64,000 nt of DNA from an uncultured Actinomycetes bacterium (GTDB lineage: Bacteria > Actinomycetota > Thermoleophilia > UBA2241), in NCBI GenBank assembly GCA_963725665.1, contig CAVRZA010000001.1, forward strand, positions 384,001-448,000, read 5' to 3'. The notes under the pieces were generated by a model. The model did not search any database, was not told where the DNA came from, and saw only the letters and a program-made list of their open reading frames with translations. How positions within the stretch are numbered: position 1 is the stretch's first letter; every line of letters starts with the position of its first letter. A program made the translations under genes and the position numbers. Shown here piece after piece: positions 38,589 through 60,020 of this stretch.

Positions 38589-38691
38589 GCTTGCGCGAGG
38601 CGCTTCGCGCCCAGCGGGTAGGTGCGGCCGGCGGTCGTTATAATCGGTGCATGACCTGCCCTCGCACTCGGTCCACTCGAGGGGATCTCGC

Positions 38692-46490: not shown

Positions 46491-46859
46491 ATGACCACTG
46501 CATACCTCACCAGTTGGCTGTACGTGGCAGCCTTCATGCTGTCGGGCGTCGTCATGGTCGTGGCCATACTCGCCATCTCGGCCATCGTCAATCCGAGCCA
46601 CCCGTCGGCGGTGAAGTACGCCACCTACGAGTGCGGCATCGAGCCCGTCGGCACGCCGTGGTCGCCGTTCGCCGTGCGCTACTACATCTTCGCCCTGCTG
46701 TTCCTGGTCTTCGACGTCGAGGCCGTGTTCCTGTTTCCCTGGACCCTGGTCTTCCGCGAGCTGGGGACGGCCGGCTTCGTCGAGGTCGTCTTCTTCATCC
46801 TCGTGCTCGTCGTCGGGCTGGTCTACGCCTGGCGGAAGGGGGTCCTGGAGTGGGTTTGA
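46491..46859 (+). CDS. nuoA: NADH-quinone oxidoreductase subunit A
   Basis: [21 protein letters not shown]. Confidence 0.95.
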
Positions 46860-47413
46860 AGGACGGCCGCCGCTACCCCAAGCTCGAGGACTTCCAGCAC
46901 CCGAACATCATCGTCACCACCGCCGACCTGGTCTTCAACTGGGCACGTTCGCGGTCGATCTTCCCGTTCACATATGGACTCGCCTGTTGCGCCATCGAGA
47001 TGCTCTCGTCGGGTTTCGCGCGCTTCGACATCGCGCGCTTCGGCTGGGAGGTGTTCCGGCCGACGCCCCGGCAGTGCGACCTCATGATCGTGGCCGGCAC
47101 GGTCAACGAGAAGATGGCGCCTGTCCTGAAGCGCCTCTACGACCAGATGGCGGAACCCAAGTGGGTCATCTCGATGGGTGCCTGCGCCACCAGCGGGGGT
47201 CCCTTCTACGACGGCTACAACGTCGTCAACGGGGTCGACAAGATCGTCCCCGTCGACGTGTACATCCCTGGCTGCCCGCCGCGCCCTGAGGCGCTCTTCC
47301 AGGGCATGCTCGAGCTACAGAAGAAGATAAAGACGATGAGCTTCGTGAACGCGGACGGCGCGACTCCTGATGGCGCGGACGCGGCCGACGAGAGCGCGCG
47401 GAGCGCGACGTAG
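46850..47413 (+). CDS. nuoB: NADH-quinone oxidoreductase subunit B
   Basis: [26 protein letters not shown]. Confidence 0.95.
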
Positions 47414-47422
47414 GGCGGCCGC

Positions 47423-47917
47423 GTGGGTCTTGAGATCGGCATCGTGCGGGCGTCCATGGACGAGATCGGGGAGCGTCTGACGGCGGCGTTCGGCGACGAG
47501 CTGAGCGATCTGCGCGTGCAGGAGCCCGACACGCTGGTCTGCCGCGTCGCCCGCGAGCACCTGCACGACGTCGCGCAGCGCCTGAAGGACCTGCCGGAGC
47601 TCGGCTACCCGACGTGCAACTGGGTCGCCGGCGTCGACTTCACGACGCACCTCGAGAGCGTCTACCACCTCTACTCCTGGAGCACCAACAGCTACCTCGA
47701 GATACACGTGGAGATCCCGCGCGACGACGCGCTGTGCGACAGCGTCTGCGACCTCTTCCCAGCGGCTGACTGGCACGAACGAGAGGCGTGGGACATGGTC
47801 GGCATTCGCTACGCGGGGCACCCCGACCTGCGCCGCATCCTGCTCAGGGACGACTTCATCGGTCATCCCTTGCGCAAGGACTACGTCGACCTGATCGAGA
47901 ACCATCCGCATGCCTGA
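47423..47917 (+). CDS. nuoC: NADH-quinone oxidoreductase subunit C
   Basis: WHEREAWDMVG, GHPDLRRIL, GHPLRKDY. Confidence 0.95.
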   Translation: MGLEIGIVRASMDEIGERLTAAFGDELSDLRVQEPDTLVCRVAREHLHDVAQRLKDLPELGYPTCNWVAGVDFTTHLESVYHLYSWSTNSYLEIHVEIPRDDALCDSVCDLFPAADWHEREAWDMVGIRYAGHPDLRRILLRDDFIGHPLRKDYVDLIENHPHA

Positions 47918-49130
47918 GCCGATCGTCGAGTCATCCATCTTCAGCGAGGCTCCCGACGAGGCCATCAGGCTCGCCATCAGGCGGGTCATGAACGAGCAGT
48001 CGGTCAGCGACCTCGAAGGCCTCGAGCTCGACACCGTCATCGTCAACATGGGGCCGCAGCACCCCTCGACGCACGGGGTGCTGCGTCTCGTGGTCACGCT
48101 TGACGGCGAGCTGATCCGCGACGTCATCCCCGTCATCGGTTACCTGCACCGCTGCAAGGAGAAGCTGGCCGAGAAGCGCACCTACTACCAGTACATCCCC
48201 ATCATCGACCGCACCGAGTACCTCGCCAGCATGAACTGCGAGTGGGGCTACGTGATGACCGTCGAGAAGCTGGCCGGCATCCGACCGACGCGGCGGGCGG
48301 AGTTCGTGCGCGTCATCGTCGGCGAGCTGATGCGCATCGCCAGCCATCAGGTCGCCGTCGGCACCTTCGTCGCCGACCTCTCGCCACTGGGCACGGCGAT
48401 GGTCTTCTACACCTTCCGCGACCGCGAGAGGATCCTCGACCTGCTTGAGGCCGTCAGCGGGGCGCGCATGATGTTCAACTACTTCCGCTTCGGGGGCGTG
48501 CGCTTCGACCTGCCCGACGGCTGGGTCGAGAAGTGCCGCGAGGTGCTCGCCGACCTGCCCCGGCACATCGACGAGTACGAGAACCTCGTGAACGACAACG
48601 CCATCTTCCTGCAGCGCTGCATCGGCAAGGGCGTGATCACCCAGCAGGACGTCGTCGACTACGCCATCACGGGCCCCAACGCGCGCGCCTCGGGCGTCGC
48701 CACCGACCTGCGCCGCACGCGGCCCTACTCGGTCTACCCGGAGCTCGACTTCGACGTCTGCTTGGGCGAGCACGGCGACGTCTACGACCGGTACAAGGTG
48801 CGCATCGATGAGATGCGCCAGTCGGTGAAGATAGTCTCTCAGTGTCTCGACATGCTGCCCAAGGGGCCGGTCCAGCTCGGCACCCTGAGGGCGCCCTACA
48901 CGCTGACGCCGCCTCCGGGCTCGGCCTACGTGGGGCAGGAGAACCCGCGCGGTGAGTACGGCACCTACATCGTCAGCGACGGCTCGCGCTACCCCTACCG
49001 TCTCAAGTTCCGCGACCCGTGCTTCATCAATCTGCAGATCTTCCCCAAGGTGCTGCGCGGCGTGAAGATCGCCGACGCCATCGCCATCTCGGGCAGCTTC
49101 GACATGGTGCTGGGAGGGATCGACCGCTAG
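47910..49130 (+). CDS. nuoD: NADH-quinone oxidoreductase subunit D
   Basis: NMGPQHPSTHGVLR, GYLHR, DRTEY, ENPRGE, C-terminal IDR; no NiFe CxxC motifs. Confidence 0.95.
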   Translation: MPEPIVESSIFSEAPDEAIRLAIRRVMNEQSVSDLEGLELDTVIVNMGPQHPSTHGVLRLVVTLDGELIRDVIPVIGYLHRCKEKLAEKRTYYQYIPIIDRTEYLASMNCEWGYVMTVEKLAGIRPTRRAEFVRVIVGELMRIASHQVAVGTFVADLSPLGTAMVFYTFRDRERILDLLEAVSGARMMFNYFRFGGVRFDLPDGWVEKCREVLADLPRHIDEYENLVNDNAIFLQRCIGKGVITQQDVVDYAITGPNARASGVATDLRRTRPYSVYPELDFDVCLGEHGDVYDRYKVRIDEMRQSVKIVSQCLDMLPKGPVQLGTLRAPYTLTPPPGSAYVGQENPRGEYGTYIVSDGSRYPYRLKFRDPCFINLQIFPKVLRGVKIADAIAISGSFDMVLGGIDR

Positions 49131-50410
49131 TGGACCCCGCTCCCCGCAACCGGTTCCGCTATTGGCAATGGCTCCTGTTGGTCGCGCTCCTGGCCCTGGC
49201 GCTGGCCTGCCTTCTTCTCTACGCGATCGTGAAAGCGCCGCCGGGAGGCATCTGGAGCGCTATCGAGCCGTTCGTGCGCGCCGGCGTGGCGATCCTGATC
49301 GCGTACGCCGTCGTCTTCGTCGCGGCGCTCGTCAATATCCTCTTCGAGCGCCGCACGCTCGCCTTCATGCAGGACCGCCTGGGGCCCAACCGCACGGGGC
49401 CGCAGGGCGTCTTCCAGAGCATCGCCGACGCCCTCAAGATGATGGGCAAGGAGGACTTCTCGCCGGCGAAGGCCGACAAGATCCTCTTCACGCTGGCGCC
49501 GCTAATGGTGATGATCGGCGCCGTCTCCGTGCAGCTCGTGATCCCCTACACCAAGGGCTGGACGGGTCAGGACCTCAACGTCGGCCTCATCTACCTCGTC
49601 GCGATCACGAGCTTCACCGTGCTCTCGATCCTCGTCGGCGGCTGGGCCTCGCACAACAAGTACTCGCTCGTCGGGGCGCTGCGCGCCGGCGCGCAGATGG
49701 TCTCGTACGAGATCCCCATGATCCTCGCGCTGCTCGCCGTGGGCGCCATCGTCGGGTCCTGGAGCCTCAACGCCGTCGTGGCGTGGCAGGAGCACTACCA
49801 TTGGCTGATCTTCTACGCGCCGTTCACCTTCCTCCTCTTCTACATCGCCTCGATCGCCGAGCTGAACCGCGGCCCGTTCGACCTGCCCGAAGGCGAGTCC
49901 GAGCTGGTCGCCGGCTACAGCACCGAGTACGCCGCCATGCGCTTCGGCATGTTCTACCTCAACGAGTACGCGGGCATGACCATCATGTCGATGATCGTCG
50001 TCACGCTGTTCTTCGGCGGCTGGGAAGGCCCCTTCGCCGACGCTCTTACGATCGGCGGCGTCGCTGTCGTGCCGCTGCTCTGGTTCCTTCTCAAGACCTA
50101 CATCCTCGTGTTCGCCCTCGTGTGGGTGCGGCTCTCGCTCCCCCGCCTGCAGGTCGACCAGCTCATGAGCTTCGCCTGGAAGATCCTCATCCCCCTCGGC
50201 CTCGCCAACATCGGCGTGGTGGCGGCGATCATCCTCTGGGCGCCGCAGTGGAAGCTCTCCCTGGCCGCATACGGCTGGGTGGCGCTGCTGCTGTTCGTCG
50301 GTCTGTTCGACCCGGTCTTGCGCTGGCGGCTGCGCCGCCAGCGCGAACGGCAGCCCAAGGTGACCGAGGGCGCCGTCGGCATCGCATCGAGCGCGGCGGT
50401 GGGTGAGTAA
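49130..50410 (+). CDS. nuoH: NADH-quinone oxidoreductase subunit H
   Basis: ERR..MQDRLGPNR, AQMVSYE, AELNRGPFDLPEGESELVAGY, LPRLQVDQLM. Confidence 0.95.
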   Translation: MDPAPRNRFRYWQWLLLVALLALALACLLLYAIVKAPPGGIWSAIEPFVRAGVAILIAYAVVFVAALVNILFERRTLAFMQDRLGPNRTGPQGVFQSIADALKMMGKEDFSPAKADKILFTLAPLMVMIGAVSVQLVIPYTKGWTGQDLNVGLIYLVAITSFTVLSILVGGWASHNKYSLVGALRAGAQMVSYEIPMILALLAVGAIVGSWSLNAVVAWQEHYHWLIFYAPFTFLLFYIASIAELNRGPFDLPEGESELVAGYSTEYAAMRFGMFYLNEYAGMTIMSMIVVTLFFGGWEGPFADALTIGGVAVVPLLWFLLKTYILVFALVWVRLSLPRLQVDQLMSFAWKILIPLGLANIGVVAAIILWAPQWKLSLAAYGWVALLLFVGLFDPVLRWRLRRQRERQPKVTEGAVGIASSAAVGE

Positions 50411-51168
50411 TGCTCGGCATGCTCAAGGCTATGCGCCAGACGATCGGCCATCTCGGGCAGAAGAAGATCACCGTGCAGTACCCCGACGAGCGCGAGCAGC
50501 TCGCCGAACGCAGCCGCGGTCTGTTCCGCGTAGTGGTCGACCCGACGAGCGACGACGCCCGCTGCCGGTCCTGCACCCTCTGCGAGACGAACTGCCCCGT
50601 GCAGGTCATCCGCGTCAACTACACCTCCAAGTACAAGCTGCCGCTGCCGAACCAGGCGCGCATCACCGAGCGCCGTCTCGACTCACAGCCCCAGGTCGAC
50701 CTCACACGACTCGATCCCATCGTCGAGGGCTACTTCGCCAGCGGCACTGGCATGATTGGGGTCTTGCAGCACACACAGGAGGAGTACGGGTACCTACCGC
50801 GCGCGGCGCTGCACGCGATAGCGCAACGCACCGGCACCTCGCTTGCGCAGATCTACGGCGTGGCGAGCTTCTACAACCAGTTCCGGCTGAGCCCGGTGGG
50901 CAAGTACTTGATCACCGTCTGCCAGGGCACCGCCTGCCATGTCGCCGGGGCGCCGTTGGTGACGGCCGCCTTCTCGGAAGAGCTCGACATCGCGCTGGAC
51001 GGCACCACCAAGGACCGCCTCTTCACCCTGCAGGCGGTCAACTGCGTGGGCGCCTGCGCCCTCGCGCCCGTCGTGAGGGTCGGCGATGACGATACCTACG
51101 GACGTATGACGCCCGACCTCGCGCGCAAGCTCGTGCGCGACCTGCGCGCGCAAGAGGGGCTCGAATGA
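50410..51168 (+). CDS. nuoI-N/nuoE: Fusion protein: N-terminal half of NuoI + NuoE/HydC [2Fe-2S] subunit
   Basis: ITVQYPDERE..RSRG and a single CRSCTLCETNCP motif (NuoI); then LQHTQEEYGYLP, VASFY, CQGTAC, CVGAC (NuoE). Confidence 0.9.
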   Translation: MLGMLKAMRQTIGHLGQKKITVQYPDEREQLAERSRGLFRVVVDPTSDDARCRSCTLCETNCPVQVIRVNYTSKYKLPLPNQARITERRLDSQPQVDLTRLDPIVEGYFASGTGMIGVLQHTQEEYGYLPRAALHAIAQRTGTSLAQIYGVASFYNQFRLSPVGKYLITVCQGTACHVAGAPLVTAAFSEELDIALDGTTKDRLFTLQAVNCVGACALAPVVRVGDDDTYGRMTPDLARKLVRDLRAQEGLE

Positions 51169-53072
51169 GCACGACGAGCGTGCGCGAGAAGCAGATCGGC
51201 GCCGCCCTGGAGCGCGCCTTCCACCCCGACGAGGTCGTGATCCGCGACGACCGGCGCGAGGTGCGGCTCTGCGCCGGCACGGCCTGTCACGCCTCGGGTC
51301 GCGTGGCCGTGCGCGAAACGTTCAAGGAGGAGCTCGCCGCGCACGGCTTGGGCGACGTCGCGGTAGTCGAGACGGGCTGCCACGGCTTCTGCGACCAGGG
51401 GCCGATCGTCGTCCTCCAGCCGCAGGGCATCTTCTACCCGCGCGTGAAGGCCAACCAGGTGGCCAAGATCGTCGAGGCGAGCATCGCCGGCGACGGCGTC
51501 GTCGACAGGCTCCTCTACAAGGACCCGACCACCGACGAGCCGATCCCCTTCGAGAAGGACATCCCCTTCTACTCACGACAGAAGCGTCTCGTCCTTGCCA
51601 TGAACGGCAAGGTGAACCCCTACTCCATCGACGACTACCTCGCGCGCGGCGGCTACCGCGCCCTGGCCAAGGTGCTCGCCGACGATGAGCCCGACGACGT
51701 CATCGAGCTCGTCGAGGACTCGGGTCTGCGCGGGCGCGGCGGCGCCGGCTTCTCGACGGGCACCAAGTGGCGCCTGGCGCGCCAGGCGCCGGGCGCGCTC
51801 AAGTACGTCATCTGCAACGCCGACGAGGGCGACCCCGGCGCCTTCATGGACCGCTCGGTCTTGGAGGGCAACCCGCACTCGGTGGTCGAGGGCATGCTGA
51901 TCGCCGCCTTCGCCATCGGCGCGACGGAGGGTTACGTCTACGTGCGCGCCGAGTACCCCTTCGCCGTCGAGCGCCTGGAACGGGCGCTCGTCCAGGCGCG
52001 CGAGCGCGGTCTCCTCGGCGACGACATCCTCGGCTCCGGGTTCGCCTTCGACGTGCACATCAGCCAGGGCGCCGGCGCCTTCGTCTGCGGCGAGGAGACC
52101 GCGCTCATGGCCTCCATCGAAGGCCGCCGCGGCATGCCGCGCACGAGGCCGCCCTACCCGGCCATCGAGGGTCTCTGGGGCAAGCCGACCAACATCAACA
52201 ACGTCGAGACCTACGCCAACGTGCCCTGGATCGTCAACAACGGCGCCGACGCCTACGCGGCCATGGGCACGGGCACCGCCAAGGGCACCAAGATCTTCTC
52301 GCTCACCGGCAAGATCAAGAACGGCGGCCTCGTCGAGGTGCCCATGGGTGCCACGCTGCGCGAGGTGATCTTCGGCGTCGGCGGCGGTATGCTGCCGGGC
52401 CGCGAGTTCAAGGCGGTGCAGCTCGGCGGGCCCTCGGGCGGCTGCCTGCCCTCCTCGCACCTCGACACGCCCATCGACTACGAGACGATGACCGCCTCCG
52501 GCGCCATCGTCGGCTCCGGCGGCATGGTCATCGTCGACGACACGACCTGCATGGTCGACCTGGCGCGCTACTTCCTGCAGTTCTCCCAGGACGAGAGCTG
52601 CGGCAAGTGCGTCCCCTGCCGCCTTGGCACCAAACGTATGCTCGAGGTCCTCGAGCGCATCTGCGCGGGGGAGGGGCGCGAGGACGATATCGAGCTGCTC
52701 GATGAGCTCGCGCACTACATCGTCGACGGCACGCTCTGCGCGCTCGGCGGCACGGCACCCAACCCCGTGCTCACGACGCTGCGCTACTTCCGCGACGAAT
52801 ACGAGGCGCACATCTTCAACAAGGAGTGCCCGGCTGGTGGCTGCAAGGCGCTCATCACCTACTACATCGACGCGGATGCCTGCACCGGCTGCACCCTGTG
52901 CGCCAAGAAGTGCCCCACCGAATGCATCTCCGGTGAGAAGAAGCTGACGCACGTCATCGACACGAGCCTCTGCATCAAATGCGACACGTGCCGTCAGGTC
53001 TGCAACTTCGGCGCCGTGAAGGTCTACTCGGGCAAGGACGCGCAGATGCCGAGCCTGGCGAAGGAAGCGTAG
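51165..53072 (+). CDS. nuoF: NuoF/HydB (BfuB-type) NADH-binding flavin subunit, 635 aa
   Basis: N-terminal CAGTAC..CHGFC [2Fe-2S], GLRGRGGAGF, NADEGDPGAFMDR, CGEETAL, SCGKCVPC, HI..CPAGGC, C-terminal 2x[4Fe-4S]. Confidence 0.93.
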   Translation: MSTTSVREKQIGAALERAFHPDEVVIRDDRREVRLCAGTACHASGRVAVRETFKEELAAHGLGDVAVVETGCHGFCDQGPIVVLQPQGIFYPRVKANQVAKIVEASIAGDGVVDRLLYKDPTTDEPIPFEKDIPFYSRQKRLVLAMNGKVNPYSIDDYLARGGYRALAKVLADDEPDDVIELVEDSGLRGRGGAGFSTGTKWRLARQAPGALKYVICNADEGDPGAFMDRSVLEGNPHSVVEGMLIAAFAIGATEGYVYVRAEYPFAVERLERALVQARERGLLGDDILGSGFAFDVHISQGAGAFVCGEETALMASIEGRRGMPRTRPPYPAIEGLWGKPTNINNVETYANVPWIVNNGADAYAAMGTGTAKGTKIFSLTGKIKNGGLVEVPMGATLREVIFGVGGGMLPGREFKAVQLGGPSGGCLPSSHLDTPIDYETMTASGAIVGSGGMVIVDDTTCMVDLARYFLQFSQDESCGKCVPCRLGTKRMLEVLERICAGEGREDDIELLDELAHYIVDGTLCALGGTAPNPVLTTLRYFRDEYEAHIFNKECPAGGCKALITYYIDADACTGCTLCAKKCPTECISGEKKLTHVIDTSLCIKCDTCRQVCNFGAVKVYSGKDAQMPSLAKEA

Positions 53073-53076
53073 GCTC

Positions 53077-55674
53077 ATGGCGACCACCCAGGAACGCGTG
53101 CACGAGATGGCGCCGCAGCTACGCCCCGACCAGATCGCGCTCACGATCGACGACCAGGAGATCGCCTGCGACAAGGGTGACAGCATCCTCGAGGCGGCGC
53201 AGAAGGCCGGCATCCACATCCCGACGCTCTGCTACGAGCCGCGTCTGCCGGCCAACGCCGCCTGTCGCGTCTGCATGGTCGAGGTCGAGGGCGCGCGCAA
53301 GCTGGCGGCGAGCTGCGCCACGGCGGCCGCCGACGGCATGGTGGTACGCACCAACACCGAGAAAGTGCGCCAATTGCGTCACCTTTACCTGGAGCTCCTC
53401 CTCTCCGACCACAACTCCTTCTGCACGCCGCCGTGTCGCGACGCCTGCCCGACGCACATCAAGATCCCGCAGTTCCTCGACTTCATCGCCCACGGCGACT
53501 ACAAGAACGGCGTGCGCAAGCTGCGCGAGGACCTGCCCTTCCCGGCGATCCTCGGGCGCGTCTGCCCGCGGCCCTGTGAGGGGCCCTGCCGGCGCCAGCT
53601 CGTCGAGCACCCCATCACCATCTGCTGGCTGCACCGTTTCATGGCCGACCAATGTATCGACGAGGAGCAGACGGGGGAGCTCCTCCTGCCGGTCGACCCC
53701 AAGCCCGACACCGGCAAACGCATCGCCGTCGTCGGCGGCGGGCCCGCCGGCCTCGCCTGCGCCTTCTACGCCCGTCTCGAGGGGCACGCCGTCAAGGTCT
53801 TCGAGGCGCTGCCCAAGCCGGGCGGCATGCTGCGCTACGGCATCCCCAGTTACCGCTTGCCGCGCGACCTGATCGAGAAGGAGCTCAACGTCCTCTGGCG
53901 CATGGGCATCGAGCTGCAGGTGAACAGCCGCCTGGGCGAGCACTATCAACTCGAGGACCTCCTGGCCGTCTACGACGCCGTCTTCCTCGGCCTCGGCGCC
54001 TTCAACTCCAATGAGATGGGCGTCGAGAACGAGGACGCCGACGGCGTCGTGACCGCGGTCGACTTCCTCGGCGAGCTCGAGCTCACCGGCAGCGTGCACG
54101 TGGGTCAGAAGGTCACCGTGATCGGCGGCGGCTTCACGGCCATGGACGCCTGCCGCACCGCGGTCCGCATGGGCGCGAAAGAGGTCACGTGTCTGTACCG
54201 CCGCTCGCGCAAGGAGATGCCGGCTCACCACACCGAGGTCGACGAGGCCGAGGAAGAGGGCGTGCGCCTCGAGCTGCTTACGGCGCCGGTGAAGATCCTC
54301 ACGGACGACGACGGCAGGGTCACCGGCATCGAGATGCTGCGCATGGAGCTCGGCGAGCCCGACGCCTCGGGTCGGCGCCGACCGGTGCCCATCGAGGGAT
54401 CGAACTACATCGTCGAGTGCGACCAGGTCATCACCGCCATCGGCCAGTTCCCCAAGCTCGACGGTACGAGCGAGGAGCAGGGCGTCAAGCGCACCAAGTG
54501 GAAGACCATCGACGTCGACGAGTGGAGCTATCAGACGGAGGACCCGAGGGTCTTCGCCGGCGGCGACGTGGTGCTCGGCGCCCAGACGGTGATCCAGGCC
54601 GTCGCGCAGGGCAAGAAGGCGGCCTGGAGCATCGACGCCTTCTTGCGCGGCGAGGAGATGCAGCGCGTCTCGCAGGACCTCGCCGAGCTGCACGGCACAC
54701 CGTTCATCGCCGCGCTCTCGGCGAAGTCCGACCTCGACCCGCGCGTCTCGCGCATGGCCGAGATCCCGCCGGTGTTCATCGACATGACGACCGACGTGAG
54801 CCACCCCGAGCCGCCGGCCGAGATGCCCAAGCTGGCGCCCGAGGAGCGGAGGACCAACTTCGAGCAGATCGAGCTGGGCTTCGCGGTGGACGAGGCACGG
54901 CGAGGGGCCGGCCTCTGTCTCGACTGCTACTGTCCCGCGAACGGCACCTGCGACCTGCAGCGCTACTCGATCGACTACGAGGTCTTCAAGAACCGGTTCC
55001 ACGGCCAGGAGGCGCACGACTACCCGGCCGACTTCCGCCACGACTTCATCATGCGCGAGCCCAACCGCTGCATCAACTGCATGCGCTGCGTGCGCATCTG
55101 CCGACTCGAGGTCGGCGCGAGCTGCTACGACGCCATGGGGCGCGGCTACGACACGATCGTCTCGACGGCCGACAACTTGCCGCTGCAGATGGTCGGCTGC
55201 GTCTCGTGCGGCAAGTGCGCCGAGACCTGCCCGACCGGCTCCATCGAGACCAACCCGCGCCTGCTGGCGAGCTACGACCTCGACGAGAGCCGCTGCATGT
55301 TCTGCGGCGAGTGCGTCGAGGTCTGCCCCTACGACGCGCTGGAGCAGACCGACTTCTTCGAGCTCGCCGGCTACGACCGCGGAGCGCTCGCCGGTGAGTC
55401 GCTCTACGTGCGTCAGGCGAGGTCGGTCGACCCGCTGCGCGAGACGGTCACCGACCTCGTGCCGCACGTCTCCGACGTCCTCGGCGGCGAGGGCTGGCAA
55501 TGGACGCCCATCAAGGCCGAAGAGGCTGGGGCGGACGGCGCGGCGGCCGGGAGCAACGGCAAGCCGGCGCCGGCGCCCGCCGAAGAGCCGGCGCCACCGG
55601 CGCCCGAAGTCGTCGCCGACGGGGCGGCCGGGGACGGCGACGGCGCCGGGACGGACCAGGAGAAGGCCGACTGA
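53077..55674 (+). CDS. Fusion protein: NuoG/HydA Fe-S core + inserted GltD/Nfn FAD-NADP(H) domain + C-terminal half of NuoI
   Basis: PTLC..CRVC..C; PPCRDACP, GRVCPRPCE, GGGPAG, GGGFTA, YRRS; CLDCYC..CDLQ; CINCMRCVRIC / CVSCGKCAETCP; then YDLDESRCMFCGECVEVCPYDAL..FELAGYDR. Confidence 0.9.
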   Translation: MATTQERVHEMAPQLRPDQIALTIDDQEIACDKGDSILEAAQKAGIHIPTLCYEPRLPANAACRVCMVEVEGARKLAASCATAAADGMVVRTNTEKVRQLRHLYLELLLSDHNSFCTPPCRDACPTHIKIPQFLDFIAHGDYKNGVRKLREDLPFPAILGRVCPRPCEGPCRRQLVEHPITICWLHRFMADQCIDEEQTGELLLPVDPKPDTGKRIAVVGGGPAGLACAFYARLEGHAVKVFEALPKPGGMLRYGIPSYRLPRDLIEKELNVLWRMGIELQVNSRLGEHYQLEDLLAVYDAVFLGLGAFNSNEMGVENEDADGVVTAVDFLGELELTGSVHVGQKVTVIGGGFTAMDACRTAVRMGAKEVTCLYRRSRKEMPAHHTEVDEAEEEGVRLELLTAPVKILTDDDGRVTGIEMLRMELGEPDASGRRRPVPIEGSNYIVECDQVITAIGQFPKLDGTSEEQGVKRTKWKTIDVDEWSYQTEDPRVFAGGDVVLGAQTVIQAVAQGKKAAWSIDAFLRGEEMQRVSQDLAELHGTPFIAALSAKSDLDPRVSRMAEIPPVFIDMTTDVSHPEPPAEMPKLAPEERRTNFEQIELGFAVDEARRGAGLCLDCYCPANGTCDLQRYSIDYEVFKNRFHGQEAHDYPADFRHDFIMREPNRCINCMRCVRICRLEVGASCYDAMGRGYDTIVSTADNLPLQMVGCVSCGKCAETCPTGSIETNPRLLASYDLDESRCMFCGECVEVCPYDALEQTDFFELAGYDRGALAGESLYVRQARSVDPLRETVTDLVPHVSDVLGGEGWQWTPIKAEEAGADGAAAGSNGKPAPAPAEEPAPPAPEVVADGAAGDGDGAGTDQEKAD

Positions 55675-56183
55675 TGCCGGGCGGCGATTTCCACCCCGTG
55701 CTCTTCACGCTGACGGCGGCCTGGGTGCTGGCCTGCGGCATCGGCGTCGTCGCCTTCCGCAGCATCGTGCGCTCGGCCGTTTCGATGGTCCTCTGCTTCG
55801 TCGGCGTCGCCGGTATCTACGCCCTGCTCTACGCGCCGCTCCTGGCGATCATCCAGCTGCTCGTCTACGTCGGCGCCATCTCGGTCGTCATCATCTTCGC
55901 CATCATGCTCACCCCGGCGCAGAGCGGCGACGTGCGCCTCTTCTTCAACCGCCAGAGCCTCTTCGCGCTGCCGCTGGCGATCGCCACGGCCGCGCTCCTC
56001 ATCGTCGTGCTCGTGACCTCCGCCATCCCCGGCGTGACGTCGAAGGCCCACGGGGTCGACCTCAAGACCTTGTCGGACCTGCTCTTCAACCAGTACGTCT
56101 TCCCCTTCGAGCTCGTCTCGTTCGTGCTCCTGGCGGCGATGATCGGCGCCATCGTCCTGGCGCGCAAGGAGGAGTCGCGGTGA
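55674..56183 (+). other. nuoJ: NADH-quinone oxidoreductase subunit J
   Basis: QLLVYVGAI, YVFPFEL, MIGAIVLA. Confidence 0.93.
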
Positions 56184-56500
56184 GTGCCGTCGACTGGTAT
56201 CTCGCTCTCGCCACGGCTCTCTTCTGCATCGGGGCCTACGGGGTGCTCGCGCGGCGCAACGTGCTGCTCGTCGTGATGAGCCTCGAGCTCATGCTGAACG
56301 CGGTCAACATCGCGCTCGTCGCGTTCGCCACCTTCATCCCGGCGACGCGCCCCATCGACGCCTCCAAGGGGCAGCTCTTCGTCCTCTTCGTGATCGCCAT
56401 AGCCGCCGCCGAGGTCACCGTGGGCCTCGCCATCGTGATCGCCAACTACCGCACCAAGCGTAACGTGCAGGCCGATCAGTTCGACCAGATGAAGGGGTAG
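56180..56500 (+). CDS. nuoK: NADH-quinone oxidoreductase subunit K
   Basis: LFCIGAYG, RRN, ELMLNA, AAAEVTVGLAI. Confidence 0.93.
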   Translation: MSAVDWYLALATALFCIGAYGVLARRNVLLVVMSLELMLNAVNIALVAFATFIPATRPIDASKGQLFVLFVIAIAAAEVTVGLAIVIANYRTKRNVQADQFDQMKG

Positions 56501-56534: not shown

Positions 56535-58430
56535 ATGAAGGCAGCCGTCGCGCTGATAGCCCTGCTGCCGCTGGCCGGCTTCGCGATCAACATCTTGCTC
56601 GGGCGGCGCTACATTCGCGACCGGGCGCACCTCGTCGGGGTGGCCACCGTCACCGTCTCGTGGGTGCTCTCGCTGTACGTCATCTACCACGCCTTCACCC
56701 ACCAGGAGGAGGCCTTCGTCTGGGACGCCTTCACCTGGATCAAGGCCGGGTCGTTCACCGTCAGCTGGGGCTTCCTCGTCGACGACCTCACGGCGATCAT
56801 GCTCGTCGTCGTGGGCACGATCGGCATGATCGTGCACTACTACTCGATCGGCTACATGAAGGACGACGAGGGCTACTACAGGTTCTTCGCCTACCTGAAC
56901 CTCTTCATGTTCATGATGTTCACCCTCATCCTGGCGGACAACTACCTGCTGGTCTTCCTCGGCTGGGAGGGCGTGGGTCTCTGTTCCTACCTGCTCATCG
57001 CCTTCTGGTTCCGCAAGAAGAGCGCCTCGCAGGCGGGCAAGAAGGCGTTCCTGGTCAACCGCGTGGGGGACTGGGGCTTCACACTCGGGATGCTGGCCAT
57101 CTTCTTCACCTTCGGCAGCCTGCAGTTCCCGGAGGTGTTCGGCAAGGCGGCCGAGGCCAACGGCGGCCTCCTCACCTGGATCTGCCTGCTGCTCTTCATC
57201 GGCGCGGTGGGCAAGAGCGCCCAGTTCCCGTTGCACGTGTGGCTGCCCGACGCGATGGAGGGTCCGACGCCGGTCAGCGCCCTGATCCACGCCGCGACGA
57301 TGGTCAACGCCGGCGTGTACATGGTCGCGCGGTCGTACCCGCTCTTCATCCACTCGCACACGGCGATGCTGATCGTCATGGGCGTGGGCACCTTCACGGC
57401 GATCTACGCCGCCTCCATCGCCATCACGCAGACCGACATCAAGCGCGTCATCGCCTACTCGACGGTGTCGTCGCTGGGCTTCATGTTCATGGCTTTGGGC
57501 GCCGGCGCCTGGGTGGCCGGCATCTTCTATCTGTTCGTGCACGGGTTCTTCAAGGGCCTCCTCTTCCTCGGCTCGGGCTCGGTGATCCACGCCATGTCGG
57601 GCGAACAGGACATGCGCAAGATGGGTGGGCTGCGCAAGAAGTTGCCGGTGACGTTCTGGACGATGATGATCGGCTCGCTCGCCAACGCCGGCCTCTTCCC
57701 GTTCGCCGGCTTCTGGGCCAAGGACGAGATCCTGGGCGTGGACTTCACGCAGGGGTACTACGTCGTGTGGGTGGTCGGGATCATCGTCGCCTTCCTCACG
57801 GCCGTCTTCATGTTCCGTCTGATGTTCCTGACCTTCTGGGGCGAGAACCGCGCCTCCGAGGAGGTGCAGCACCACATCCACGAGTCGCCGAGGATCATGA
57901 CGGTGCCGCTAATCATCCTCGCCGTGCCGGCGGCACTGGCCGGCATAGTGGTCGGCTGGCCGCCGGAGGGCGGCTGGATCCACGGCTTCCTAGAGCCCGT
58001 GTTCTACGAGGTGGAGTCGGAGGCGTTCGCGTGGTTCGGCACGGGCGGGCTGCTCATGGCTATCTCGCTCGTCGTCGTCATCGTCGGCATAACGCTCGCC
58101 TGGACCATGTACGTGCGCGACAAGCGACTGCCGGCCGCCCTCGTTGAGCGCGTCCCGTGGGCCTACCGCGCCTCGTTCCGCAAGTTCTACATGGACGAGC
58201 TCTACGAGGTCGCCGTCATCAGGCCGGTTCTCAACGGCGCCAACTGGCTCTGGGTGTTCTTCGACACGAAGGTGATCGACGGGACGGTCAACGGTATCGC
58301 GGCGCTGTGGGGATGGATCGGCACGACGCTGCGGCCGCTGCAGACGGGGCGGGCGCAGAACTACGCCTTCGGCATCTTCGCCGGGGTCTTCGTGCTCGTC
58401 ATCGTCTTCCGTTGGGTGTGGGGAGGCTGA
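56535..58430 (+). CDS. nuoL: NADH-quinone oxidoreductase subunit L
   Basis: WEGVGLCSYLLI, GKSAQFPLHVWLPDAMEGPTPVSALIHAATMV. Confidence 0.96.
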   Translation: MKAAVALIALLPLAGFAINILLGRRYIRDRAHLVGVATVTVSWVLSLYVIYHAFTHQEEAFVWDAFTWIKAGSFTVSWGFLVDDLTAIMLVVVGTIGMIVHYYSIGYMKDDEGYYRFFAYLNLFMFMMFTLILADNYLLVFLGWEGVGLCSYLLIAFWFRKKSASQAGKKAFLVNRVGDWGFTLGMLAIFFTFGSLQFPEVFGKAAEANGGLLTWICLLLFIGAVGKSAQFPLHVWLPDAMEGPTPVSALIHAATMVNAGVYMVARSYPLFIHSHTAMLIVMGVGTFTAIYAASIAITQTDIKRVIAYSTVSSLGFMFMALGAGAWVAGIFYLFVHGFFKGLLFLGSGSVIHAMSGEQDMRKMGGLRKKLPVTFWTMMIGSLANAGLFPFAGFWAKDEILGVDFTQGYYVVWVVGIIVAFLTAVFMFRLMFLTFWGENRASEEVQHHIHESPRIMTVPLIILAVPAALAGIVVGWPPEGGWIHGFLEPVFYEVESEAFAWFGTGGLLMAISLVVVIVGITLAWTMYVRDKRLPAALVERVPWAYRASFRKFYMDELYEVAVIRPVLNGANWLWVFFDTKVIDGTVNGIAALWGWIGTTLRPLQTGRAQNYAFGIFAGVFVLVIVFRWVWGG

Positions 58431-58432
58431 CG

Positions 58433-60020
58433 GTGAGCTGGCAGGACCAGGTGGGCTTCCCGCTCCTCTCTGTGATGACCTATCTGCCCCTGGTGGGCGT
58501 GGCGCTCATCGTGTTGTTCGCCAAGGATCGCCCAGGTCTCTACAAGCCGATCTCCCTGGTGACGACCGTGCTCGCCTTCATCCTCTCGGCCGTCATGCTG
58601 CTGCGCTTCGACACCGGGCGGCCGGGCATGCAGTACGCGCGAGAACGTCGTCTGGATCAAGAGCCTCAACATCCACTACGGCATGGGTGTCGACGGCATC
58701 GCCGCCCTGCTGATCTTCCTCACCACGCTGCTGGGCTTCATCGTCATCATCTCGAGCTGGAACTACGTGAAGGATCGCGAGCGCGGCTTCTTCGTCTCGC
58801 TGCTGCTCCTGCAGACCGGGATGGTCGGCGTCTTCTGCGCCACCGATATCTTCCTCTTCTACGTGTTCTGGGAGGCCATGCTGATCCCGATGTACTTCAT
58901 CATCGGGGTCTGGGGCGGGCCGCGAAAGATCTACGCCGCCATCAAGTTCTTCCTTTTCACCTTCGCCGGCAGCGTGCTGATGCTGGTCGCCATCATCGCC
59001 ACGGTCTACTACGTGAAGGGCCAGACCGGTCAGCTCACGTTCAACATCCAGGAGCTGACGCGGCAGGTCTATCCCTACCACCTGCAGTTCTGGGCCTTCC
59101 TGGCCTTCTTCGTGGCCTTCGCCATCAAGGTACCGATGTGGCCGCTGCACACCTGGCTGCCCGACGCGCACGTCGAGGCGCCCACGGCGGGTTCCGTGAT
59201 CCTGGCGGGAGTCCTTCTGAAGATGGGCGGGTACGGCATGCTGCGCTTCAACCTGCCGATGTACCCCGACGCCGCCGTGACGTTCGTGCCCTGGGTGATC
59301 GCTCTGAGCGTCATCGCCATCCTGTACGGCGCCCTGGTCTCGATGATGCAGAAGGACCTGAAGAAGCTGGTGGCTTACTCGAGCGTGAGCCACATGGGGT
59401 TCGTGACGGCAGGGATCTTCGCTGGCATCGCGCTGGTAGGCAACAGCGCCGGTATGGAGGGGGCCATTCTGGTCATGTTCAACCACGGCATCCTCACGGG
59501 CGCCCTGTTCCTCATGGTCGGCTTCCTCTACGAACGCACGCACACGCGCGATATCGCGGCCATGAGCCAGCTCGCCAAGCCGCTGCCGGTGCTGGCCGGC
59601 TTCTTCCTCTTCTTCACCCTGGGGTCGCTCGGGCTGCCGGGCCTGAACGGGTTCGTGGGCGAGTTCCTCAGCCTGCTGGGCCTGTTCAACTACTCGCGCG
59701 CCACGGCGGCCATCGCCGGCATCGGCGTTATCCTGGCCGCCGCCTATCTGCTGTGGATGTTCCAGCGCGTACTGTTCAACGACCGCGGTGACGCCGACGT
59801 CATGCCGGACTTCCACCTGCGCGACTTCTCGCTGCGCGAGATCGCTTCGGTGGTGCCGCTCGTCGTGTTCGCCGTCTGGGTCGGCGTCTATCCCCAGCTC
59901 TTCCTGAACCTGCTGCACGTGCCGGTGCAGCAGATCATCGACAAGGTGACGCCGTCGCTCGCCGGCGGCCAGAGCCACGGGCTGGCGCAACTGTTCGACG
60001 TCACGAGAGGGCTCTTCTAG
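58433..60020 (+). CDS. nuoM: NADH-quinone oxidoreductase subunit M, with apparent +1 frameshift near 58640
   Basis: N-terminus (MSWQDQVGFPLLSVMTYLP) in one frame; GVDGI, FWEAML, KVPMWPLHTWLPDAHVEAP in the next frame. Confidence 0.92.

Follow-up and report, generated by a model that had tools for sequence, protein, structure and literature searches.

A complex I operon in an uncultured actinobacterium with a putative NfnABC-like input module and a NuoI divided between two module subunits

The window analysed here, 64,000 nucleotides from the genome of an uncultured soil-type actinobacterium, carries a complex I operon of 13 genes in the order nuoA-B-C-D-H-[I'-E]-F-[A'-I'']-J-K-L-M-N (Table 1). 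Three ORFs (I'E, 50410-51168; F, 51165-53072; A', 53077-55674) lie between nuoH and nuoJ, and sequence comparison identifies their closest solved homologues as subunits C, B and A of the electron-bifurcating NfnABC/HydABC enzymes, not as NuoEFG. The initial annotation had placed this module at 51165-55260: its start coincides with that of F, but its end falls inside A', after the second but before the third CxxCxxCxxxC motif, and the ORF continues to 55674. Also overlooked were the upstream ORF as a part of the module and the division of NuoI between this ORF and A'.

The remaining genes encode homologues of canonical NuoA, B, C, D, H, J, K, L, M and N. NuoB retains the N2 ligands (tandem CC45-46, C110 and C141 in the 186-residue stretch used), and in the phmmer alignment against the PDB, NuoD H55 and Y104 match H38 and Y87 of T. 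thermophilus Nqo4, which we take to be the residues binding the quinone head group; the initial annotation had named both features. In this assembly, the nuoM reading frame is interrupted near 58640-58680, with the first ~80 residues in one frame and the remainder (58683-60020) in another. Scattered frame breaks typical of indel errors also occur in one relative's assembly (L057) and in others of the group. The 13-gene order is found in all 15 relatives' loci examined (13 complete, two cut by contig ends), and nuoA orthologs open the operon in 14 of them, the last (L043) being cut by the contig end before nuoC.

Table 1. Features of the complex I operon, with window coordinates, strand and supporting evidence.
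Feature	Coordinates	Strand	Evidence
nuoA (122 aa)	46491..46859	+	ORF; 64-74% identical orthologs in relatives
nuoB (start approximate)	46853..47413	+	translation, motif positions, orthologs
nuoC (164 aa)	47423..47917	+	translation, orthologs
nuoD (406 aa)	47910..49130	+	phmmer vs PDB: top match 2fug_4, 341.6 bits
nuoH (start approximate; open frame from 49019)	49145..50410	+	translation, orthologs
NuoI N-terminal half (residues 1-75 of 252-aa I'E)	50410..50634	+	TIGR01971, PDB, BLASTP, conservation
BfuC/NuoE-type thioredoxin-like [2Fe-2S] domain (I'E residues 104-245)	50719..51144	+	PF01257, E 1.1e-43
BfuB-type flavoprotein F (635 aa)	51165..53072	+	Pfam, phmmer, tree, motifs
A' N-terminal domain: [2Fe-2S] C52, C63, C66, C80 and first His-Cys3 half H112, C116	53077..53424	+	Fer2_4 19-94, 9bov_A alignment, conservation
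NfnL/GltD-like insert (A' residues 117-613)	53425..54915	+	Pfam Fer4_20 and Pyr_redox_2; alignments to three solved NfnA-type chains
His-Cys3 second half CLDCYCPANGTC (614-625) and dicluster pair CINCMRCVRIC (665-675) / CVSCGKCAETC-P (708-719)	54916..55230	+	aligned to 9bov_A; Fer4_Nqo3 657-722
NuoI C-terminal half (A' residues 726-800)	55252..55476	+	TIGR01971, NF004537, BLASTP, conservation
A' C-terminal tail, Ala/Pro/Gly/Asp-rich	55477..55674	+	translation
nuoJ (start overlaps A' stop codon)	55674..56183	+	translation, orthologs
nuoK (start approximate)	56186..56500	+	translation, orthologs
nuoL (631 aa)	56535..58430	+	translation, orthologs
nuoM with frame break	58427..60020	+	three-frame translation vs four continuous orthologs
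nuoN (498 aa)	60021..61517	+	translation, orthologs

The F subunit has an N-terminal [2Fe-2S] domain (B5; CAGTAC/GCHGFC, residues 36-76), an FMN/NADH core with B1 and NADEGDPGAFMDR at residues 218-230, a three-Cys plus His site (B2; C462, H549, C555, C560) and a C-terminal 2x[4Fe-4S] domain (B3/B4; CTGCTLCAKKC/CIKCDTCRQVC, residues 573-613). The corresponding Pfam matches are 2Fe-2S_thioredx (31-105), Complex1_51K (183-354), SLBB, NADH_4Fe-4S (465-549) and two Fer4 (566-617). All the HydB-like traits described initially, the size included, are present. F lacks none of the BfuB-specific metal sites, and all 13 family orthologs conserve the B1-B5 ligand motifs. In phmmer searches, nine Bfu-type B chains of known structure match full-length F over residues ~30-620 with 669-861 bits, compared with at most 452 bits for FdsB, Nqo1 and NuoF. 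The shared 411-residue core alone gives 526-657 bits with solved bifurcating B subunits, and 440, 414 and 373-391 bits with the non-bifurcating FdsB, Nqo1 and NuoF. A maximum-likelihood tree built from 42 F cores places the window's F in a well-supported clade with long F proteins of the Bfu type, and a 99/94 branch parts the Bfu-type side from 16 canonical short NuoF, including that of the genome's own Nuo14; none of the 42 sequences is biochemically characterised, and the link to characterised enzymes is provided by the phmmer scores against PDB chains.

The A' subunit (865 aa; 814-921 aa among orthologs, with tails of varying length) can be aligned from residue 21 to 747 with C. saccharolyticus NfnA, whose structure is solved (9bov_A, E 1.8e-186), and profile NF009454 matches residues 19-675 (E 2.7e-185). 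Fer2_4 is followed by SDHNSFC (110-116), Fer4_20 (116-196) and Pyr_redox_2 (215-512). The GltD-like insert comprises a two-cluster Fer4_20, an FAD fold with GGGPAG (220-225) and an NADPH-type GGGFTAMD...CLYRRSRKEMPA segment (348-383), in which CLYRRSRKEMPA occupies 372-383. Its YRRS..EMPA motif aligns with the equivalent motif of three solved NfnA-type chains; the NADPH motif is degenerate in three of 13 family orthologs. With CLDCYCPANGTC closing the series, the FAD domain lies inside the His-Cys3 motif, just as first annotated, and CLDCYCPANGTC and both dicluster motifs are invariant in 13/13 sequences. The Pfam search gave no Fe_hyd_lg_C match in A', and of the NuoG profile (606 positions) only positions 1-95 find a match, bearing out the reported lack of an H-cluster and of the NuoG molybdopterin-like domain. 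Judged by its sequence, A' belongs to the NfnA type, with a GltD/FAD insert and a YRRS motif, and has no Fdh/NuoG-like C-terminal domain. At the position of the cluster ligand Lys170 of C. saccharolyticus NfnA, all 14 sequences have a histidine (His186 in A'). Lys170 is a ligand of A7 in that enzyme, and mutating the A7 Lys ligand of the S. ovata enzyme lowered its bifurcating activity (PMC11829005).

The third module ORF combines part of NuoI with a BfuC-like domain. In the latter, the ligands C171, C176, C212 and C216 are invariant in 10/10 aligned sequences, and the top PDB matches are 8oh5_A (168 bits), from what we take to be the S. ovata Stn entry, and 9bov_C (C. saccharolyticus NfnC, 161 bits); the domain is thus closest to C subunits from the same PDB entries that F and A' match. 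F does not group with the non-bifurcating NuoF proteins, the result that would have contradicted the initial annotation. The F scores and tree, together with the PDB matches of A' and the E part, support the initial view of a bifurcating-type input module rather than NuoEFG. With E-values of 1e-43 to 1e-258, a chance origin of the confirmed sequence features is excluded.

The N-terminal part of I'E carries CRSCTLCETNC (residues 52-62) and corresponds to the first half of NuoI. Positions 3-66 of the 121-position NuoI profile TIGR01971 match I'E residues 9-74 (E 6.7e-12), further NuoI, NdhI and FpoI models match the same half, residues 4-70 match mitochondrial NDUFS8/TYKY chains in the PDB (E 2.9e-10 to 3.7e-8), and BLASTP gives 38% identity to residues 59-123 of the genome's own intact NuoI. 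The second half is found in A', where CMFCGECVEVC-P (740-751) is followed by YDALEQTDFFELAGY. Here TIGR01971 positions 69-114 match residues 726-771 (E 6.3e-15), NF004537 positions 102-162 of 204 match residues 727-792, and BLASTP aligns the segment with the intact NuoI of contig C4. The two half-matches are complementary and do not overlap, a profile search found no intact NuoI in the window, and because the genes abut or overlap, the operon has no space for a separate nuoI. C52, C55, C58, C62 and P63 of I'E are invariant in 10/10 aligned sequences, and all 16 Cys of the four cluster motifs are conserved in the relatives aligned. Since A' has three of these motifs and I'E one, four [4Fe-4S] clusters can form only if both polypeptides share a dicluster domain. 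BLASTP also aligns A' motifs 2 and 3 with both NuoI motifs, and the pairing (2,3)+(0,1) would be a formally possible alternative; either pairing needs an inter-subunit domain. The full-length I'E fusion occurs in 20 of 24 other family genomes (49 of 55 in a broader count).

Taken together, the operon probably encodes a complex I in which a complete Nfn-Bfu-type (NfnABC/Stn-like) module replaces NuoEFG and is attached through the split NuoI; no other observation speaks as strongly as this split for the module being a physical part of the complex. The module would be built in at a divided NuoI, each piece of which is joined to a module subunit: in the BfuC-like subunit, the N-half (one CxxCxxCxxxCP motif and the NuoI-specific N-terminal segment) supplies the N-terminus, and in the NfnA-like subunit, the C-half (second motif and NuoI-specific tail) supplies the C-terminus, where it replaces the Fdh/NuoG-like domain found in soluble NfnA. 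The points of fusion would be neighbours, and I'E and A' may together re-create NuoI (N6a/N6b) on the Q-module. With cluster names from the C. saccharolyticus NfnABC structure, the proposed wiring is FAD (NADPH site) - A7 - A6 - A3 - A2 - A1 - [B1-FMN-C1] (NADH site, bifurcation centre) - B3/B4 (ferredoxin site). In soluble NfnABC, the A2-A4-A5 branch is a dead end (PMC11829005); here, the A4 branch from A2 would lead, by way of the clusters of the split NuoI, to N2 in NuoB and finally to menaquinone, the presumed quinone, at NuoD/NuoH. Most probably, the complex would pump protons while reducing menaquinone with electrons from NADPH and/or, by confurcation at B1-FMN-C1, from NADH together with reduced ferredoxin; the same junction would also permit the Nfn reaction among the three soluble pools. 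From the sequence we infer bifurcation and the linking of four redox pools in this complex. Points that weigh against this reading are the degenerate NADPH motif of three family orthologs, the histidine at the A7 Lys position, the alternative motif pairing, the interrupted nuoM frame and the divergent relatives described below.

The genome also encodes a canonical Nuo14 operon (contig C4, with intact NuoI, NuoF and NuoG), to whose subunits those of the module-bearing operon are 27-51% identical; the latter is therefore a specialised second complex. It also has ferredoxin-linked enzymes, namely POR and, encoded 6 kb upstream, an aldehyde:ferredoxin oxidoreductase (AOR), which counts in favour of the reading given above.

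A somewhat unlikely explanation is a plain, non-bifurcating complex I of dual nucleotide specificity, passing electrons from NADH (through FMN) and NADPH (through FAD) to menaquinone, with structural or vestigial BfuB/BfuC clusters and no role for ferredoxin. The His for Lys exchange at A7 fits it, as do divergent versions from two Actinomycetota MAGs (L068, L081) and a Chloroflexota MAG (L066), in all of which NuoI is split and A' has its GltD domain. They have a short F without the Bfu-type N- and C-terminal domains, and either no E [2Fe-2S] domain or a degenerate one; L068 encodes I', E' and F as one 607-aa polypeptide. Since these versions lack the Bfu-specific parts, the design is evidently workable without bifurcation, and their F cores lie on the Bfu side of the tree, as expected if those parts were dispensable and lost. 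However, the B2, B3, B4, B5 and C1 ligands are kept in 13/13 family orthologs at only 55-81% overall identity, which speaks for selection on these sites. According to the relevant sections of PMC9304861, characterised non-bifurcating homologues lack B2-B5, and all true bifurcating Bfu homologues carry them.

We regard as improbable that the complex physiologically runs in reverse, with proton-motive force driving menaquinol electrons to NADPH and/or reduced ferredoxin. The canonical Nuo14, the haem-copper oxidase and the cytochrome bd oxidase encoded in the genome could build that force, and complex I is reversible. A similar role has been proposed, in the part of PMC3578206 concerned, for complex I with a HydB-like NuoF in Nitrospina (unusual NUO-2) and Kuenenia. 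Against it, POR and AOR reduce ferredoxin directly, and the sequence carries no indication of direction. The nuoM frame break might suggest a decaying pseudogene cluster, or the module genes might encode a soluble enzyme merely co-located with nuo, but both are very improbable given that the remaining genes are all intact, gene order (15/15 loci) and cofactor motifs are conserved, indel-type breaks are scattered over other assemblies such as L057, and both pieces of NuoI form part of module subunits in an operon without another nuoI.

The Nfn-Bfu-type complex I favoured here resembles several known systems. Soluble NfnABC/Stn enzymes (9bov/9bp5 from C. saccharolyticus; 9n5u; 8oh5) are the best or near-best PDB matches for all three subunits and share the A domain order up to the dicluster pair, the NADPH motif and the BfuBC core sites. 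Unlike them, A' lacks the Fdh/NuoG-like domain and therefore the A5 cluster, has His at the A7 Lys position, and bears, as does the C-like subunit, an extra NuoI half; the genes lie inside a nuo operon, and the soluble enzyme's dead-end branch would be continued. Compared with canonical NuoA-N, including the C4 copy, the N2 and quinone-site residues are shared, whereas F (635 aa) carries four additional metal sites, another subunit stands in for G, E and NuoI differ in being fused and split, respectively, and the genes follow the 11-subunit order (A-B-C-D-H-I-J...), the module lying within nuoI. Once the inserted genes are removed, this order equals that of 11-subunit complex I/NDH-1, whose donor is unknown or ferredoxin and whose entry point is NuoI, as described in sections of PMC3144371 and PMC11238625; here, by contrast with a free or unknown partner, the donor module is covalently joined to both NuoI halves. 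The mbx-like nuo clusters, in the section of Degli Esposti 2015 devoted to them (PMC4758237), likewise tie a GltD-type NAD(P)H flavoprotein to the NuoI position, but there it substitutes for NuoI and that section describes no BfuBC core, whereas the present operon retains NuoI, though in two pieces, and has the GltD domain within an NfnA-type subunit alongside a full BfuBC core.

The initial annotation was unaware that 'Nuo-Bfu' enzymes had already been predicted in 2022. The pertinent sections of Schut et al. 2022 (PMC9304861) place them in Geobacter, Deferribacteres, Planctomycetes and Nitrospirae, with NuoEFG predicted to be replaced and the oxidation of NADH and reduced ferredoxin to be coupled to menaquinone reduction and proton pumping. 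As there, a BfuABC-type module lies in the middle of the nuo cluster; 'Nuo-Bfu' is described as a 14-subunit A-N enzyme, compared with 13 genes here, those sections mention no NADPH domain or split NuoI, and Actinobacteria are absent from the paper's main text. The present BfuA is Nfn-type (GltD/FAD insert) without the Fdh/NuoG-like domain, NuoI occurs as two separately fused parts, and the module follows nuoH, inside nuoI, instead of lying between nuoD and nuoH. A paralogous cassette on contig C2 recalls the 'Por-Bfu' clusters of POR and BfuABC genes predicted in the same sections (PMC9304861), and differs by the fusion of its A'-like subunit (GltD insert, three cluster motifs) to a TPP-binding PorB domain (1064 aa) and by a single-motif N-terminal extension on its C-like subunit. 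If the reading of the operon as a complex I with an Nfn-Bfu-type module is true, NADH, NADPH and probably ferredoxin would feed one respiratory complex.

The nuo genes lie on the + strand in a single tightly packed row of 13 genes, adjacent genes abutting or overlapping by a few bases, in a window with a G+C content of about 69%. Their order corresponds to that of an 11-subunit complex I with three genes inserted into nuoI. The initial annotation had assigned the unusual input module to 51165-55260; the start, at the gene for the flavoprotein F, is correct, but the end falls inside the 865-aa ORF of the NfnA-like subunit A', and the 252-aa ORF I'E was omitted.

Genes of the nuo operon in the window
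Feature	Position	Strand	Basis
nuoA	46491-46859	+	ORF
nuoB	ends 47413	+	ORF
nuoC	47423-47917	+	ORF
nuoD	47910-49130	+	ORF
nuoH	ends 50410	+	ORF
I'E, 252 aa	50410-51168	+	ORF
F, 635 aa	51165-53072	+	ORF
A', 865 aa	53077-55674	+	ORF
nuoJ	starts 55674	+	ORF
nuoK	ends 56500	+	ORF
nuoL	56535-58430	+	ORF
nuoM	ends 60020	+	ORF
nuoN	60021-61517	+	ORF

The operon encodes the expected parts of the Q- and P-modules, namely NuoB with the tandem Cys of cluster N2, NuoD with its His and Tyr, NuoH, and three antiporter-like subunits. In agreement with the initial annotation, translation and motif location showed that the NuoB tandem Cys is retained, and H55 and Y104 of NuoD align with H38 and Y87 of Nqo4, residues that we take to be quinone ligands. 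The gene order is the same in all 15 loci fetched from relatives (55-86% identity; 13 complete, two cut by a contig end), which rules out a chimeric assembly. The reading frame of nuoM changes within 58427-58700, with about 80 N-terminal residues (ending ...GRPGMQY) in one frame and ...ENVVWIKSLNIHYGMGVDG... in another. Four nuoM orthologs are uninterrupted across this point, and the break is either an assembly indel error or a genuine frameshift. In a close relative (locus L057), the operon is split into many frame fragments affecting nuoB, nuoC, nuoH, I'E, F, A', and nuoL. As the fragments resemble assembly indel errors more than decay, single frame breaks in such MAGs call for caution before pseudogenes are assigned.

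Sequence comparison indicates that NuoI is split between I'E and A', a feature that the initial annotation had overlooked. Positions 3-66 of the NCBIfam NuoI profile (121 positions) match residues 9-74 of I'E, while positions 69-114 match A' at residues 726-771, where a second NuoI model extends as far as residue 792. Scanning the whole genome with the NuoI model yielded just these two complementary half-matches in the window, and a single intact NuoI above the curated cut-off, on another contig (C4). The two halves are 38% and 34% identical to this intact NuoI (BLASTP, E ~1e-12), and residues 4-70 of I'E match mitochondrial NDUFS8 chains of the PDB. Because the NuoI halves are fused to I'E and A', the operon reads A-B-C-D-H-[I'-E]-F-[A'-I'']-J-K-L-M-N.

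In ferredoxins, a CxxCxxCxxxCP motif provides three ligands to its own cluster and one to the neighbouring cluster. There is one cluster motif in I'E and there are three CxxCxxCxxxC motifs in A' (residues 665-675, 708-718, and 740-750), and since the number is odd in each protein, the two must share a dicluster domain. The parsimonious arrangement would follow NfnA and HydA in pairing motifs 1 and 2 of A' with each other, and NuoI in pairing motif 3 with that of I'E. The less parsimonious alternative, which joins A' motifs 2 and 3, draws on the fact that BLASTP also aligns these two with both NuoI motifs. Complex prediction for A' 640-800 and I'E 1-95 with custom alignments gave scores of 0.19 and 0.22, both short of the 0.32 needed to judge contact either way, and the AlphaFold2 model of A' 640-865, built on a 13-row alignment, had a mean pLDDT of 41, too poor for use.

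The F subunit bears out its earlier description as a protein with additional cofactor sites. Pfam assigns a thioredoxin-like [2Fe-2S] domain (31-105), a 51-kDa FMN domain (183-354), SLBB, an N3-type cluster domain (465-549), and two Fer4 domains (566-617), and the loop NADEGDPGAFMDR was located at residues 218-230. The FMN/NADH-binding core and the B1 [4Fe-4S] cluster of a BfuB subunit are represented by the Complex1_51K and NADH_4Fe-4S domains, with the motifs GLRGRGGAGF (187-196) and ESCGKCVPC (477-485) plus C525 conserved in orthologs. The B2 site of the solved enzymes comprises three Cys plus one His and holds zinc, according to the available text of two studies (PMC9499530, PMC11829005), and it is absent from Nqo1. 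The Cys/His metal site noted in F is indeed present: C462, H549, C555, and C560 are the same residues as in 7t2r_B and 9bov_B and are conserved in 13/13 orthologs, their identity as B2 ligands being read from the conserved pattern, as the source texts give no residue numbers. The Fer4 pair, with motifs at 573-583 and 603-613, corresponds to B3 and B4, where ferredoxin is reduced in Bfu enzymes, and the PF01257 domain at residues 31-105, with C36, C41, C72, and C76, to B5; both sets are conserved in 13/13 orthologs. In the archaeal NfnABC enzyme, ferredoxin sits 12.8 Å from B3 and B4 (PMC12018979, in the part of the text available).

Comparison with all PDB chains places F nearer to the B subunits of bifurcating enzymes, as the initial annotation had proposed. 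Over residues ~30-620, it matches nine solved Bfu-type B chains with 669-861 bits, including NiFe-HydB (7t2r_B), NfnB of C. saccharolyticus (9bov_B), 8oh5_B, 9n5u_B, and HydB of T. maritima (7p5h_B), whereas FdsB, Nqo1, and NuoF reach at most 452 bits with the full-length protein. With the core alone (residues 140-550), the ranking persists: a group of four, of which three come from Nfn-type entries, reaches 634-657 bits and the remaining Bfu B chains reach 526-593 bits, compared to 440 for FdsB, 414 for Nqo1, and 373-391 for NuoF. A maximum-likelihood tree was built from 42 F cores, drawn from loci and genomes and linked to biochemically characterised enzymes through the PDB-chain scores; in it, a branch with 99/94 support separates 16 canonical short NuoF, including that of the genome's own Nuo14 operon, from all 20 long F and six short F. 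The window's F falls into a clade with good support that comprises 12-14 long Actinomycetota F. A grouping of F with NuoF or HoxF, which would have spoken against the earlier assignment, was seen neither in the tree nor in the PDB scores.

The N-terminal parts ascribed to the G-like subunit A' are also present, with Fer2_4 at residues 19-94, SDHNSFC at 110-116, a GltD/NfnL-type block of Fer4_20 and Pyr_redox_2 at 116-512 carrying CLYRRSRKEMPA at 372-383, and CLDCYCPANGTC at 614-625. No H-cluster domain was found in A' with Pfam, and the match to the NuoG profile is limited to positions 1-95 of 606, so that the molybdopterin-like domain is absent; A' can be ruled out as a NuoG or a HydA. The resemblance to NfnA is extensive, residues 21-747 aligning with NfnA of C. 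saccharolyticus (E 1.8e-186; 625 bits over 727 residues). Alignments with 8oh5_C and 9n5u_A include the NADPH-type YRR(S/T)..EMPA stretch, and the NF009454 model matches with an E-value of 2.7e-185. Judged by these matches, A' possesses the NfnL/GltD-like FAD domain, the two [4Fe-4S] clusters, and the NADPH site of an Nfn-type BfuA. The NADPH motif is kept in 10/13 orthologs and degenerate in three. In these three (L033, L037, and L042), the stretch GGGFTAMD...YRRSRKEMPA has degenerated while all cluster ligands are still conserved, and some lineages may have lost or altered nucleotide binding at the FAD domain. Residues 104-245 of I'E form a NuoE/BfuC-type [2Fe-2S] domain (PF01257, E 1.1e-43) with the four invariant Cys expected for C1. 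Its closest PDB chains are the C subunits of Nfn and Hyd Bfu enzymes, from the same entries as the matches of A' and F.

The module differs from the soluble NfnABC enzymes in several respects. Solved NfnA chains are 963-1178 aa long and end in a NuoG/Fdh-like domain that A' lacks; the alignment of A' with them stops near residue 700, and a NuoI half follows the dicluster pair instead. Cluster A7 of NfnABC is ligated by three Cys and one Lys, K170 in the C. saccharolyticus enzyme (available text of PMC11829005), whereas A' has His186 at the Lys position and His occurs in 14/14 aligned sequences. Moreover, NfnABC is free-standing, whereas here the genes for A', F, and I'E are placed between nuoH and nuoJ, with NuoI halves fused on. 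Nor does the operon fit canonical NuoEFG, in which NuoF has ~440 aa and lacks extra clusters, NuoG carries a molybdopterin-like domain, and the genes follow the order D-E-F-G-H. Schut et al. (2022; PMC9304861), in the text available, used gene clusters of other phyla to predict a Nuo-Bfu with 14 subunits as well as Por-Bfu enzymes of several subunits, and the operon shares with the former BfuABC genes that stand in the middle of a nuo cluster and replace NuoEFG. However, the predicted Nuo-Bfu has 14 subunits, A to N, with a separate NuoI, whereas here there are 13 genes, a split and fused NuoI, and an Nfn-type BfuA. We class the system as a variant of the predicted Nuo-Bfu kind. The available parts of other reports describe a HydB-like NuoF2 in Nitrospina NUO-2 (PMC3578206) and a gltD-like flavoprotein in place of NuoI in mbx-like clusters (PMC4758237). 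In literature outside subscription journals and supplements, we found no account of a split NuoI, of a nuo operon with an A subunit of Nfn type, or of this system in Thermoleophilia, and the term 'Nuo-Bfu' in one paper only.

The full-length I'E fusion was detected in 20 of 24 other genomes of the same family and in none of 16 sampled genomes from six other families of the class. A wider draw at E <= 1e-60, a threshold that would miss divergent forms, gave 49/55 other family genomes and 0/245 genomes of eleven other families. In the orthologs aligned, every Cys/His ligand is conserved, both in F and in the E domain and the four cluster motifs. When I'E was searched against 1.84 billion representatives, four of the best 150 matches began at query residue 1: the family representative, two fragments, and a 43%-identical singleton, P0123. 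This Lys-rich protein of 251 aa, a full-length NuoI-N/E fusion from one 11.9-kb public contig, hints at a third lineage with a split NuoI; no relatives of it were found among metagenome contigs. Among public sequencing runs, none contained at least half of the sampled words, the best share being 0.28 and that of two RNA runs 0.05.

In a scan of genome contigs, 9 of 80 loci began at query residue 1-2, and three divergent operons were added. Two of them, from Actinomycetota MAGs (L068 and L081), read A-B-C-D-H, followed by one protein that runs from I' through an E remnant, devoid of its [2Fe-2S] domain, into a short F (607 aa, L068:6509-8332; ~3306-5111 in L081), then a GltD-bearing A'-I'' and J-N. 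The loop of the fused protein, NAEEGDPGSFKDR, is intermediate between the Bfu and NuoF forms. The third, from a Limnocylindrales MAG of the Chloroflexota (L066), encodes an I'-E protein whose Cys are degenerate, together with a short F and the beginning of a GltD-bearing A'. All three F cores have long branches, lie on the tree's Bfu side, and keep the B2-site His/Cys pattern, which fits, without proving, a loss of Bfu parts rather than an origin from NuoF.

The genome (3.7 Mb) also encodes a canonical Nuo14 operon on C4, with short NuoF and full NuoG beside the intact NuoI, one haem-copper oxidase, one cytochrome bd oxidase, one [NiFe] and one [FeFe] hydrogenase, and several further long-F modules. 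One of these modules belongs to a paralogous cassette in a POR operon on contig C2 (C2:363360-371471, equal to L124:2361-10469, minus strand), which comprises porG, porD (read from translation, not from Pfam), porA, a C-like subunit, the long F (65% identical), and an A'-like protein of 1064 aa. In the C-like subunit, the N-terminal extension has a single motif and lacks the NuoI-specific first ~26 residues; the A'-like protein carries a GltD insert whose NADPH motif is degenerate, three cluster motifs, and a TPP-binding PorB domain fused to it. Cassettes of this type made up 10/80 loci of the genome-contig scan. The tree does not unite the F proteins of the family's nuo operons (loci L029-L043) in one clade, and some of them fall with the genome's own copies on C2, C4, and C6. 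The C6 copy is joined by L034, the POR-linked copies by L033 and L037, and the C4b copy by the window's F (71% identical). Between orthologous operons, F proteins share 55-81% identity, often less than A' (up to 82%), which suggests that F genes have been exchanged or converted between paralogous modules.

The only [FeFe]-hydrogenase catalytic domain of the genome (C2:550525-553897) adjoins an E-like gene and a short F (442-aa frame) with NADEGEPGTFKDR, a layout expected of a non-bifurcating NADH-linked hydrogenase. An aldehyde:ferredoxin oxidoreductase (38644-40542, + strand; AFOR_N and AFOR_C, E 5e-132) is encoded ~6 kb upstream of nuoA, with a DeoC-type aldolase, a class A penicillin-binding protein, and tatC in between. 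Two large NuoG/Fdh-like proteins, at ~25549-27621 (+ strand) of the window and at C7:26726-28792, match the NuoG profile over its full length with ~396-399 bits, under the cut-off; the C7 copy contains one in-frame TGA, possibly a selenocysteine codon of a formate dehydrogenase.

In the C. saccharolyticus structure, electrons pass along FAD-A7-A6-A3-A2-A1-[B1-FMN-C1]-B3-B4, and the A2-A4-A5 branch is termed a dead end and an evolutionary remnant (PMC11829005, in the text available). By alignment, motifs 1 and 2 of A' would be the A2/A4 pair. The NuoI half of A' would then stand in the place of A5 and the Fdh-like domain; the second half extends the C subunit at its N-terminus, which lies close by in the solved structure. 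Through a re-assembled NuoI, the NfnABC side branch would thereby be connected to N2 and the quinone site. NADH together with reduced ferredoxin (confurcation) and/or NADPH could reduce menaquinone, assumed here from the lineage and the Nuo-Bfu proposal, with protons pumped, and the Nfn reaction would stay possible at the same junction. It is less likely, in our estimate, that the complex is instead a plain NAD(P)H:quinone enzyme, a reading favoured by the existence of short-F relatives and by the His in place of the A7 Lys. As for the Nfn-Bfu module in its entirety, we tentatively propose that a complex I input module arose here a second time, independently: an 11-subunit-type complex I may have taken a whole Nfn-Bfu transhydrogenase into nuoI, so that a single machine would couple the proton-motive force to NADH, NADPH, ferredoxin, and menaquinone and the dead-end branch of NfnABC would gain a function. 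The cassette with its split-ferredoxin connector would be portable, as in the paralog fused to the TPP subunit of pyruvate:ferredoxin oxidoreductase.

Nuo-Bfu complexes have hitherto been predicted from gene neighbourhood only; that each NuoI half is fused to a subunit of the module provides genetic evidence for a Bfu module as a physical part of a complex I. This touches on an old open question, as the electron donor of 11-subunit complex I-like enzymes is given as unknown in the available text of PMC3144371 and PMC11238625; here, one natural solution is hard-wired into NuoI. It also suggests a possible use for the A2-A4-A5 side branch that structural papers on NfnABC regard as a remnant. The series, which grades from full BfuBC via forms with a short F and a remnant of E down to one fused polypeptide, is a natural experiment on the parts needed for bifurcation. 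If the proposal is true, NADPH and probably ferredoxin enter a proton-pumping respiratory complex directly, and models of redox balance would change for these widespread uncultured Actinomycetota.
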